Positions 3,745-6,723 of a DNA stretch of 7,660 nt are shown here, piece by piece. A program made the position numbers and the translations under genes. Within the stretch, counting starts at the first letter, position 1, and each line of letters opens with the position of its first letter. This stretch comes from Escherichia coli (lineage in GTDB: Bacteria; Pseudomonadota; Gammaproteobacteria; Enterobacterales; Enterobacteriaceae): assembly GCF_003334335.1 (NCBI RefSeq), contig NZ_QOWQ01000072.1. One strand, written 5' to 3'. Below the pieces are notes generated by a model. It saw only the letters and a list, made by a program, of their open reading frames with translations, was not told the origin of the DNA and searched no databases.

Positions 3745-3899
3745 CGCTTCTTGCTTTTGATTACGTTGAAGATATTGTCGCTGATATAGCCGTTGTATTT
3801 CACTGGTCGCCCTCTGAAATCTTTGTGATGACTCCCGGTGAACTGGTTGCCTGGCGAGAACGGGCGGCCGTCAGAACCGGGAATCATAACGATGAGTAA
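3364..3899 (+). CDS. E+E': E+E' frameshift fusion tail chaperone (predicted about 178 aa; -1 shift at 3693-3699)
   Basis: The -1 frame downstream of the slippery site encodes ASLVSEEGAGGGRRVTLLAFDYVEDIVADIAVVFHWSPSEIFVMTPGELVAWRERAAVRTGNHNDE with no stops. The E' stop (3897-3899) overlaps the start of T (ATG 3892), as in P2. Confidence 0.65.
3693..3699 (+). other. Slippery heptamer T-TTT-TTG for a programmed -1 ribosomal frameshift (E to E')
   Basis: In the E frame the codons are GGT TTT TTG. The -1 frame is open from 3699 to a TAA at 3897-3899 (66 codons). This matches the known P2 E/E+E' arrangement, the analogue of lambda G/GT. Confidence 0.7.
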
Positions 3900-6723
3900 T
3901 AATCTCCAGATACGTGTAGCCCTTACTGCGGTCGACCGTCTCACTCAACCCGTCAGGCGCGCCCGGGAAATGACCGGCGCGCTTTCCGAATCTCTTTCCT
4001 CCACGCAGAACGCTCTTAAGTCACTCCAGCGAAGCAGTGATGCGTTTTCCCGTGCCCGCCAGCAGGTGACCTCGACTGAAAACAGTCTGAACGAGGCGCG
4101 TGCGCGACTTCAGCGCCTCCAGGAGGCCCAGCGTACAGGCACAACACTAACGGAAAAACAGCAGGAAGCTATCCGCTCGCTGACTGTGAAGATTGATCGC
4201 CTTAATACGGTTTATTCCCTCCACAAATCCCGACTTAGCGAAGCCAGTCGCGAACTGGAATCTCACGGTATACGGGCGGACGGAAGTAACCGTACGGTCG
4301 AGAGGGCAATCAGGCGGACGCAGGAATACAACGATCAGCTCGAACGCCAGCGGGGCCAGCTTGCACGCGTCACGCAGGCGCAGCAACGCTATGACCGTGT
4401 TCAGGATATTGCCGGTAAGCTCAGTCAGCGCGGTGCTGTTGCCATGGCGGCTGGCAGTGCCGGTCTGTATGCTGCCGGTCGCGCGGTTGCACCTGTTGTT
4501 GAAGAGCAACGGCAGGGGGCGCTCATTGCGGCACAGAGTGGCGGCAGCGCAGAAGACGGCCAGCGCTACAGCCGTATGATTCAGAGCATCCGTGCGTCAG
4601 GTGCGGCCACGGATATCGCGATGATTTCGGAAGCAGCAGCTGCGGCGCAAAGCACGCTTGGCGCACTGGGTACCGTAGGGACTGAAGAACTGGAAAGGGT
4701 GACACGGCAGGCAATCGATCTTGCTCAGGTCACCGGCGGTAATGTGGCTGAACAGGTTCAGGCTGCTGGCATTATGCTGAAAAACGGGCTTGCCGCAAAT
4801 GCAGGTGAGGCCGTCGACCTGATGGCGGCAGGGATGCAGAAAATGTCTGCCGAAATGCGCGGCGAACTTCCTGAAATTCTGCATGAGTATTCCACGCATT
4901 TCCGCAATATGGGGCTATCCGGCTCTGAAACCATGACGCTGCTTGTCAGCATGGCGCAGCAGGGGAAATTCGCCCTGGATAAAACCGGCGATGCTGTCAA
5001 AGAACTCAGTATTCGCGGCTCGGATATGTCCAAATCCAGCGTTGAAGCCTATGAGCTGATTGGCCTTAACGCTGAAAGAATGTCGTCAGCGATCGCCAGT
5101 GGCGGCGCGGCCGCGCGTGAAGCGATGCGTCGCACCGCGTCAGGTCTGTTACAGATTCAGGATCCTGCAGAACGGGCCAATGCGGCGATAGCGCTGTTCG
5201 GCACTCCCATTGAAGATCTGGCTGTTGACCAGATCCCGGATTTTCTCCGGTCGCTTGCAACGGTATCTGACCGTATGGGGCAGGTTCAGGGAACCGCCCG
5301 GCGAATGGGGGATGTTCTGCGTGACAACCTCGGCGGCGACACCGATCGTCTGTCCGGCATTTTCTCCGGTATTCGCAGTGATGTTGTGTCGCTGGTTACT
5401 GATGATATCCGCGAGCTTGTACAGGCTGTTGCTTCTGTGGGTGAACGCTTCAGGTCGTGGGTTCAGGAAAACCCGCAGCTTGTACGCACGCTGACCCTTA
5501 CCGTGGGTGGCGTGCTTGCGGCCACAACGGCCATTGGTGCGTTGTCTGTCGGAGGTGGGTTACTGACGGGGATTTTTGCAAAACTTCAGCTTGGCTCTGC
5601 GCTTCTTGGTGGCGGGCTATCCTTGCTTACAAACGGTGTTGGTGGTCTTGCTCTTCGCCTGTCCGGCCTTCCGGCACTGTGGGGGATGGTCTCCGGTGCG
5701 GTTTCTGTGCTGGGCGGGGTGCTTGCCGGTCTTCTCAGTCCTGTTGGTCTCGTGATTGCTGCTCTTGCCGGTGGGGCGCTGCTCATATGGCGTCACTGGG
5801 AACAGGTTAAGGCGTTCATGCTCGGCACATTCCGGTCGCTGTGGGCTGGCCTTGCGCCTGTTCGTGAAAGTATTGCTCAGTTTGCGCCGTTGTTTGATCT
5901 GGTGTCGGGTGCGGTGTCCACTGTGTTTGACTGGTTTACCCGGTTACTCACGCCTGTTCAGGCCAGCAACGAATCTCTTGAACGGTGTACGTCTGCGGGA
6001 GAAAGCTTCGGTCGTGTACTTAGTGGGGCGATATCGCTTGCGCTTACGCCGCTGAAGGCGCTGATGGATGGACTTGCCTGGGTACTGGAAAAGCTTGGCG
6101 TGCTGCCTGATGAAGCTGAAAGGGCGCGCCGGAAACTGGAGGATGCACAGCGGGCTTCGCTTCTTCAGGGCAAGCTCTCCCTGCTTCAGGGGGATGTTAA
6201 TGCCATTATCTCGCCCGCTAAGCCAGTTGATGGCAATGATAAAGGTAATAATGGTGGCAAGCCTTCTGTCATAAACGACGGCACCAGTGGCGTTCTTCGC
6301 AGGCTCAAAGGTATCGAGGGTAATACGTCGGGTATGCTTCAGGAAGCCCGCAAGCGTATCGGTCCTGGCGATATCGTGTTTAAAAATCTCCCCCGTGCGC
6401 TGGCTGTTCGCGGGCAGTGGAATGAACCGACTGTTGCACCCGGGCTTCCGCTTATGCCAGCGTTTTCGCCTGTGTCTCCGGCGGTTTCCCCGGATTCTTC
6501 CCGTCCTGTGGAGGTTAAGCGGTGGGATCCGGTGTCCCCGACACCCCGGGAGCCTTCGCGCTCTCCTGAACCGCCGCCTGTGTACGGTGGTGATATTCAT
6601 GTTCACCTTCACAACGTGGTTACGCAGAACCCTCGCGACCTTGCCAGAATGGTGGGGGAGGCGGTACGGGAAGAAATTCGCAGACAATCCGGCGGTATGA
6701 ACAGTTTCCGCGATCGTGATTAG
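3892..6723 (+). CDS. T: Tail tape measure protein (P2 gpT-like), about 943 aa
   Basis: Long ORF directly after E/E'. Coiled-coil-like Q/R/E/L-rich N-terminus, a central Gly/Ala/Leu-rich hydrophobic block (GGVLAATTAIGALSVGGGLLTGIF...GLVIAALAGGALLIW) and a Pro/Ser-rich C-terminus are typical of tape measure proteins. Start chosen at ATG 3892 (MSNNLQIRV...) rather than the upstream in-frame ATG 3838, which lies inside the E' coding region. Confidence 0.88.
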   Translation: MSNNLQIRVALTAVDRLTQPVRRAREMTGALSESLSSTQNALKSLQRSSDAFSRARQQVTSTENSLNEARARLQRLQEAQRTGTTLTEKQQEAIRSLTVKIDRLNTVYSLHKSRLSEASRELESHGIRADGSNRTVERAIRRTQEYNDQLERQRGQLARVTQAQQRYDRVQDIAGKLSQRGAVAMAAGSAGLYAAGRAVAPVVEEQRQGALIAAQSGGSAEDGQRYSRMIQSIRASGAATDIAMISEAAAAAQSTLGALGTVGTEELERVTRQAIDLAQVTGGNVAEQVQAAGIMLKNGLAANAGEAVDLMAAGMQKMSAEMRGELPEILHEYSTHFRNMGLSGSETMTLLVSMAQQGKFALDKTGDAVKELSIRGSDMSKSSVEAYELIGLNAERMSSAIASGGAAAREAMRRTASGLLQIQDPAERANAAIALFGTPIEDLAVDQIPDFLRSLATVSDRMGQVQGTARRMGDVLRDNLGGDTDRLSGIFSGIRSDVVSLVTDDIRELVQAVASVGERFRSWVQENPQLVRTLTLTVGGVLAATTAIGALSVGGGLLTGIFAKLQLGSALLGGGLSLLTNGVGGLALRLSGLPALWGMVSGAVSVLGGVLAGLLSPVGLVIAALAGGALLIWRHWEQVKAFMLGTFRSLWAGLAPVRESIAQFAPLFDLVSGAVSTVFDWFTRLLTPVQASNESLERCTSAGESFGRVLSGAISLALTPLKALMDGLAWVLEKLGVLPDEAERARRKLEDAQRASLLQGKLSLLQGDVNAIISPAKPVDGNDKGNNGGKPSVINDGTSGVLRRLKGIEGNTSGMLQEARKRIGPGDIVFKNLPRALAVRGQWNEPTVAPGLPLMPAFSPVSPAVSPDSSRPVEVKRWDPVSPTPREPSRSPEPPPVYGGDIHVHLHNVVTQNPRDLARMVGEAVREEIRRQSGGMNSFRDRD

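Follow-up and report, generated by a model that had tools for sequence, protein, structure and literature searches.

The 7660-bp stretch of Escherichia coli contig NZ_QOWQ01000072.1 (assembly GCF_003334335.1) analysed here, hereafter the window, holds the tail-gene end of a P2-family prophage, as seen from a listing of its open reading frames (ORFs) and from PHROG searches. On the plus strand at 3892-6723 lies the gene for a tail tape measure protein (TMP), the homologue of gpT of phage P2, whose ORF is intact from the ATG at 3892 to the stop codon at 6721-6723 and encodes 943 amino acids (aa). It is almost certain that this ORF specifies the tail TMP of a temperate P2-family (Peduoviridae) myophage that is integrated in E. 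coli and belongs to the branch including phage P88. A sequence-only reading of this DNA had already taken the product for a tape measure protein, and this is borne out both by the gene context and by homology. The gene order is FI, FII, E/E', T and U, with the TMP gene between gpE/E' and gpU, as in P2. Moreover, the protein matches phrog_28 (tail length tape measure protein) over aa 1-942 (E 2e-119), Pfam PF10145 (PhageMin_Tail) over aa 236-437 (E 1.3e-17) and the NCBIfam equivalog domain TIGR01760 (47.1 bits against a cut-off of 28.8), and in BLASTP its aa 1-743 are collinear with aa 1-723 of P2 gpT (25% identity, E 5e-44).

The start codon is supported by the common N-terminus with P2 gpT (MSNNLQIRVALTAVD in the window protein, MSNNVKLQVLLRAVD in P2) and by an overlap with the upstream E+E' frame that is exactly that of P2. 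Frame analysis locates a conserved -1 frameshift slippery site, T TTT TTG, at 3693-3699 in gpE, and the resulting gpE+E' spans the region 3364-3899, where its stop codon TAA (3897-3899) overlaps the TMP ATG by 8 nt; in P2 the overlap is also 8 nt, with E+E' ending at 19857 and T starting at 19850. The Prokaryotic Genome Annotation Pipeline (PGAP) annotates the E' part only as a 72-nt 'hypothetical protein'.

The gene is already known, and its annotation in public databases is correct. In a 99.6%-identical prophage (NZ_CP145707), PGAP calls identical ORF coordinates and the product 'phage tail tape measure protein', and the protein of that genome, WP_032182346, has six substitutions relative to the window TMP. 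The protein cluster P0001, 'phage tail tape measure protein [Escherichia coli]', which comprises 456 member sequences, is 99% identical to the window TMP and likewise 943 aa in length. An exhaustive search among 1.84 billion cluster representatives recovered 6855 relatives at E <= 0.001; the best 150 of these 6855 measure 184-2320 aa, fragments included. Since full-length relatives run to more than 2000 aa, 943 aa is a mid-range length for the family. With a correct annotation and features that are typical of its clade, the gene in itself matters little.

The neighbouring tail genes are all intact in the window and were identified from the ORF listing and PHROG searches. Upstream of the TMP gene, the plus strand carries the sheath gene FI (1595-2800), the tube gene FII (2800-3312) and gpE (3364-3744; phrog_103), while directly downstream it carries a gpU-like tail protein gene (6726-7199; phrog_76, E 4e-70), which PGAP calls 'phage tail protein'. 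The minus strand carries an ogr-like zinc-finger activator gene (72-266), gpD (308-1453) and, from 7235 onward, a tail-fibre assembly gene that the end of the window cuts short. The FI-FII-E-T-U block is inverted relative to P2, so that D and ogr lie on the opposite strand and diverge from FI; P88 has the same order. In the D/FI intergenic region (1454-1594, 141 bp) there is a single TGT-N12-ACA element at 1514-1531, of the kind bound by Ogr and about 55-70 bp from both the D and the FI start codons. By analogy with the shared PO/PP activator site of P2, this box may serve both divergent late promoters.

Module organization of the tape measure protein

Module boundaries and conservation were taken from an alignment of the window TMP with 19 relatives, whereas an AlphaFold2 (AF2) full-length model, built from a shallow alignment of 20 sequences, served solely to assign secondary structure and as a proxy for disorder. 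With DSSP, this model gives helices across most of aa 4-765 and a predominantly helical protein, at a mean predicted local distance difference test (pLDDT) score of 56.7. The first module (aa 1-185; 3892-4446, plus strand, as are all that follow) consists of long, charged, coiled-coil-like helices, modelled at aa 4-81, 88-123 and 134-177 (pLDDT as high as 91 within aa 40-120); it gives weak matches to coiled-coil families and is 46% identical to P88 and 28% to P2. It is followed by the central helical domain of the PhageMin_Tail/TP901 type (aa 186-470; 4447-5301), recognized by PF10145 and TIGR01760, which is the best-predicted part of the model (pLDDT 70-92). This domain shares 20-22% identity with both P88 and P2 and 58-67% with its own clade, ~45% identical elsewhere, so it is apparently a divergent, exchanged variant of the central TP901-type domain. 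Its best matches outside the clade lie in much longer TMPs of 1200-2300 aa.

Nucleotides 5480-5790, where the sequence-only reading had described consecutive Gly/Ala/Leu-rich hydrophobic segments, encode aa 530-633, and the composition agrees with that description. Within the block as delimited here (aa 530-634; 5479-5793), 75% of the residues are G, A, L, V or I, against 45% protein-wide, and only 4 of 105 are charged, against 21% protein-wide. The longest run free of D, E, K, R, H, Q and N reaches 44 aa, where 2000 shuffles averaged 16.5 and never exceeded 32. As regards the transmembrane prediction that the same reading had proposed, the Kyte-Doolittle profile has peaks, over 19 residues, of 1.64, 1.80 and 2.31 at aa 533-559, 593-618 and 602-634, and the uncharged runs of 31 and 44 aa are long enough for bilayer-spanning helices. 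On this profile, the block comprises about three transmembrane-like helices and a moderately hydrophobic insert at aa 564-592. P2 gpT and P88 have equivalent blocks in the corresponding position, at aa 533-616 and aa 525-616, respectively.

The term 'Gly-zipper-like', which had been applied to this core, is unsupported because the motif counts are no higher than in shuffles of the same segment. A glycine zipper is reportedly defined, after Kim et al. 2005, as (G,A,S)xxxGxxxG or GxxxGxxx(G,S,T); the block contains two such motifs against 2.42 in 2000 shuffles (fraction at or above the observed count, 0.68) and three GxxxG motifs against 4.67. There is no glycine-zipper enrichment in P2 gpT either.

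The region best conserved with P2 gpT (aa 635-738; 5794-6105) contains the motifs WxxVKAF and LEKLGV and aligns without gaps, at 39% identity to P2 and 51% to P88. Its sequence probably forms amphipathic helices, and the motif region yields a weak PDB profile match (E 2e-4) to 8kea_G, which is the TMP of myophage A-1(L). Homology to P2 gpT in BLASTP stops shortly afterwards, at aa 743, within a charged helix cassette (aa 739-768; 6106-6195). This cassette, variant A, is identical (100%) in P0003 and 77% identical in P88, but only 23-27% identical in the relatives P0012, P0015 and P0017, which carry a PVMWEWDPxQKKMVQK cassette instead, though they are ~90% identical elsewhere. That alternative cassette, listed for proteins P0012, P0015, P0017 and P0040, is duplicated in a Klebsiella TMP. 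Together with the central domain, the cassette suggests mosaic exchange, which is common in phage tail genes.

The remaining C-terminal part alternates variable linkers with conserved modules. A Gly/Asn/Lys/Pro-rich linker (aa 769-800; 6196-6291) is indel-rich and 10-44% identical in the aligned relatives, with the exception of P0003 (78%), and is modelled as coil (pLDDT 27-38). It leads into a conserved module that is absent from P2 gpT (aa 801-846; 6292-6429; LRRLKGIEGNT...RIGPGDIVFKNLPRALAVRGQW), which shows 46-100% identity across 17 of 18 clade members, P0119 being the outlier at 27%, and in whose GPGDIVFKNLP motif residues G824, P825, G826, D827, F830, K831, L833 and P834 are invariant or nearly so. 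Next comes a Pro/Ser-rich hypervariable spacer (aa 847-897; 6430-6582), only 12-26% identical in relatives that share 46-85% across the adjoining aa 801-846, and modelled as coil with pLDDT of about 32-36; the distance from GPGDIVFKNLP to the terminal module varies from 53 to 187 aa among relatives. The protein ends in a conserved C-terminal module (aa 898-943; 6583-6720), which contains GGDIHVHLHNV, a helix at aa 914-933 (pLDDT 60-75) and SFRDRD; wherever this module could be located in a relative, it was 43-44 aa long.

A low-complexity Pro/Ser tract had been described at nucleotides 6420-6600, which encode aa 843-903, and the peptide quoted for it is exact. Proline is indeed enriched in aa 847-897, where it makes up 15 of the 51 residues, compared with 2.4% in the rest of the protein (binomial P = 5e-13), but the serine half of the description falls short of significance on its own (P = 0.06), and Tandem Repeats Finder detected no DNA tandem repeat beneath the tract. 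As regards disorder, for which a prediction had been suggested, the AF2 proxy returns coil with pLDDT 27-45 at aa 766-798 and 823-913, so that the spacer is predicted to be disordered. In the 1095-aa relative P0026, a block of ~40-45 aa within the spacer, before the C-terminal module, occurs twice (…PAPVV.VARQVSTLPQPRHNEANTELAAGIQRVHEAVN…), and this duplicated block indicates that the linker grows by internal duplication. Searches of Pfam, PHROGs, NCBIfam and the PDB found no domain of known function in the C-terminal ~200 aa.

These modules also account for the length of the protein, which had been estimated to exceed a P2 gpT of about 815 aa. P2 gpT is indeed 815 aa in length and the window TMP is 128 aa longer. 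Alignment, which had been put forward as the way to locate insertions, places 20 of the extra residues in the homologous body (743 aa against 723 aa in P2), most of them in the additional moderately hydrophobic segment at aa 564-592. The other 108 lie in the C-terminal part, where 200 aa follow the shared LEKLGV region against 92 aa in P2, with no detectable similarity between these two C-terminal parts. As judged from the alignments, the 108 residues are clade-specific modules, namely the charged helix cassette, the G/N/K-rich linker, the GPGDIVFKNLP module and the hypervariable Pro-rich spacer. The closest relatives in the databases come from E. coli, Citrobacter, Klebsiella, Dickeya, Erwinia and Pectobacterium; they measure ~900-1095 aa and follow the same plan. 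For some relatives the Pfam family PF28019 is also listed. The length and layout are thus ordinary for this branch, because P88 (935 aa) and the close relatives share the modules. The sequence-only reading had held that the same length and domain layout in typical P2-like TMPs would speak against its prediction, and this holds in part: the P88 branch displays the same length and layout, whereas P2 gpT itself is shorter and has another C-terminus. At least two C-terminal architectures can be distinguished among the TMPs of the P2 family, the P2 type and the P88 type.

Tail assembly, tail length and expression

Established TMP biology supplies the ruler function, the anchoring and the membrane insertion in the following outline, into which the identity, homology, module boundaries, conservation and composition observed here are fitted. 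The TMP copies would form a mostly helical bundle with the aid of the chaperones gpE and gpE+E', and attachment of the protein to the hub or spike would probably be through the conserved C-terminal 43-44 aa. The tube (FII) and the sheath (FI) would then polymerize around the bundle, starting at the baseplate hub, and polymerization would stop at the far, N-terminal end of the bundle, setting the length of the tail. After contraction the TMP would be expelled, and the block at aa 530-634 would probably insert into the inner membrane and help to form the DNA conduit. In T4, a transmembrane segment of the TMP (gp29) takes part in building the DNA conduit at the membrane; gp29 also has a Pro-rich region, and predicted transmembrane helices are common in the TMPs of both myophages and siphophages (bioRxiv 10.64898/2026.03.06.709160). 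By analogy, the hydrophobic block may have the same membrane and DNA-conduit role as the T4 segment. In A-1(L), the last 20 residues of the TMP form a helical tripod that binds the N-terminal helices of the spike (PMC10966104), and the terminal module of the window TMP, aa 898-943, would be the corresponding baseplate or spike anchor.

The sequence-only reading went further and treated the whole 943 aa as the ruler, so that the tail would be proportionally longer than that of P2, by about 15%, or ~155 nm against 135 nm. In the systems tested, TMP length does set tail length, according to the TP901-1 study in which this is reviewed (PMC5099701). Moreover, a value of 0.15 nm per residue fits well both A-1(L), with a TMP of 689 aa and a tail of 104.5 nm (PMC10966104), and P88, with a TMP of 935 aa and a tail of 137-140 nm (PMC5285337). 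For pro147, with a TMP of 815 aa, the same laboratory as for P88 reported a tail of 130-131 nm (PMC5285337), so that the P88 tail is 6-10 nm longer. However, this is an increase of only 5-8% for a TMP that is 15% longer, and the P88 tail is only 2-5 nm above the textbook 135 nm of P2, whose TMP is also 815 aa (PMC7552001). Overall, a 15% longer TMP goes with a tail 2-8% longer in negative-stain estimates, which is at the limit of their resolution, and such estimates are too rough to resolve the difference. A search for tail measurements of other phages of the clade (Xuanwuvirus, ST16-OXA48phi5.4) yielded genomic papers only.

The location of the extra residues also argues against strict proportionality. 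With 108 of the 128 in the C-terminal part, more than half of which is predicted to be coil at pLDDT 27-45, and with a spacer that varies from 53 to 187 aa among relatives, this region resembles a linker more than a calibrated ruler. A proportional rise to ~155 nm is therefore unlikely, because most of the extra residues lie in length-variable linkers that are predicted to be disordered, and the view of the whole protein as a ruler seems rather improbable. The longer tail that had been foreseen is weakly supported, since the P88 tail does exceed those of pro147 and P2, but by a small amount. At 0.15 nm per residue the window TMP predicts ~141 nm, essentially the P88 value, and the tail of the window phage is expected to be ~140 nm in length, like that of P88 and close to that of P2. 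The caution to be drawn is that total TMP length predicts small differences in tail length poorly where the additional residues belong to disordered, hypervariable C-terminal linkers.

Several results weigh against the interpretation of the ORF as the TMP of a P2-family myophage of the P88 branch. In the central domain, TIGR01760 scores 47 bits, compared with 357 for P2 and 293 for P88. A phmmer search of the single TMP against the PDB gave no match at E <= 1, and thus no solved close relative, and Foldseek of the AF2 model against the PDB gave none at E <= 0.001, only generic helical hairpins; the model itself, for which just 20 sequences were used, is poor overall. A profile of 20 relatives did find matches in the PDB, but these were marginal and restricted to other TMPs (8kea_G at E 2e-4, 8vjh_Q and 9m8o_M). 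The last 45 aa do not align significantly with the P2 gpT terminus (local alignment score 19, shuffle mean 22), and the proposed anchor role thus rests on the analogy with A-1(L). Finally, the end of an IS421 element (IS4 family) abuts and truncates the late activator gene ogr in this very genome, so that expression of this TMP copy is not assured.

This last point leads to a different explanation, according to which the gene is a silent passenger in a defective prophage and makes no tail. Positions 1-75 of the window are the last 75 bp of IS421, with the junction at 75/76, and the insertion shortens the ogr/Delta-like late activator to 64 aa from the 100 aa of the intact prophage. Nevertheless, the retained 64 aa include all four zinc-finger cysteines, and P2 Ogr is itself only 72 aa (a 219-nt coding sequence). 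Furthermore, the TMP ORF and the neighbouring tail genes are intact and nearly identical to copies elsewhere: the prophage is present in 16 of 5426 complete E. coli genomes, 14 of them at 98.8-99.6% identity over positions 76-7660 of the window and two at ~88%. In NZ_CP145707, it adjoins serS and has annotated head, tail, baseplate and lysis genes, apparently a full P2-like set. The silence of this copy thus appears unlikely, though the shortened ogr may affect late gene expression and, with it, any induction of the source strain. The insertion at ogr was seen in none of the 16 complete genomes carrying the prophage, while the IS421 end sequence occurs in 2144 of the 5426 genomes, with a median of three copies per genome. 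An identification of positions 1-75 as the end of a group II intron was rejected, as they are the end of an IS421 copy, which in the comparison genome sits within an intron gene. Rfam gave no match across the whole window at E <= 0.1.

A third possibility, quite doubtful, is that the clade-specific C-terminal 200 aa are not part of the ruler and act in infection as a flexible, extended tether with swappable cassettes, either after ejection, for instance by bridging the periplasm with the terminus still on the spike, or by varying so as to evade proteins of the host or of a prophage that obstruct TMP-mediated DNA entry. The hypervariable, indel-rich spacer between strongly conserved motifs, the exchange of the cassette among relatives ~90% identical elsewhere, its duplication in a Klebsiella relative and the predicted disorder of the region are consistent with such a role. 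A preprint reports that T4 Imm binds the TMP and blocks entry, and cites HK97 gp15 as acting likewise (bioRxiv 10.64898/2026.03.06.709160). However, the searches mentioned above found no domain of known function in the region, and low-complexity linkers evolve fast without selection for diversity. In its most specific form, in which the P88-type C-terminal 200 aa would be a modular, fast-evolving infection-phase tether made of cassettes and a 53-187-aa spacer between two conserved motifs, the proposal is more doubtful still. If it were true, the diversity of the region would reflect envelope geometry or escape from TMP-binding superinfection-exclusion proteins, and tail length would not track total TMP length within the clade.

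Relation to P88, P2 and more distant tape measures

In its alignments, the window TMP is typical of the P88-type branch of the P2 family and differs from P2 gpT mainly in C-terminal architecture. It possesses the traits of this branch, namely the GPGDIVFKNLP module, the Pro-rich spacer and a terminus of the GGEIHVHLHNV...SFRDRD type. The TMP of P88 (Xuanwuvirus, Peduoviridae; YP_009113088, 935 aa) shares the position and order of the gene, including the inverted FI-to-U block, and is within 8 aa of the window TMP in length. The two proteins are 46% identical in the N-terminal helices and 51% identical both in the hydrophobic block and at aa 635-738, and P88 carries all of the C-terminal modules, that is, the cassette (77%), the GPGDIVFKNLP module (67%), the Pro-rich spacer and the 44-aa terminus (65%). 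They differ in the central domain (aa 186-470), which is only 20% identical and apparently an exchanged variant, and in an extra 11-aa stretch in the hydrophobic block of the window TMP. Overall identity is 39% in the multiple alignment and 43% over 71% of the query by tblastn. The genus criterion of the International Committee on Taxonomy of Viruses is ~70% nucleotide identity genome-wide, and the TMP identity of 39-43%, in comparisons made on protein only, suggests that the window phage does not belong to the genus of P88.

Among other relatives, the P88-like Citrobacter phage phiSM (OR565851; PMC6456863) has a 44%-identical TMP and a related sheath-type tail cluster, whereas its paper (PMC6456863) describes a siphovirus with a non-contractile tail, without lengths, which is at odds with P2-family tail genes. 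The P0001 cluster, including WP_032182346, has the same 943 aa at 99% identity and shows no difference of substance.

P2 gpT (NP_046782, 815 aa) shares with the window TMP its N-terminus, the E/E' frameshift with the 8-nt overlap, the hydrophobic block and the WxxVxAF...LEKLGV region, but has neither the GPGDIVFKNLP module nor the Pro-rich spacer. Moreover, in P2 the T gene belongs to one operon with D and ogr, whereas in the window D and ogr are on the opposite strand. Beyond the P2 family, T4 gp29 and A-1(L) gp13 (PDB 8kea) resemble the window TMP in general plan, with a coiled coil at the N-terminus, a transmembrane-like segment, a helical domain and a baseplate-binding C-terminal end, and T4 gp29 also has a Pro-rich region, as the window TMP does. 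However, the order and lengths of their modules differ from those of the window TMP, and the likeness to A-1(L) gp13 is limited to the marginal profile match (E 2e-4) over the hydrophobic and WKYWEP region.

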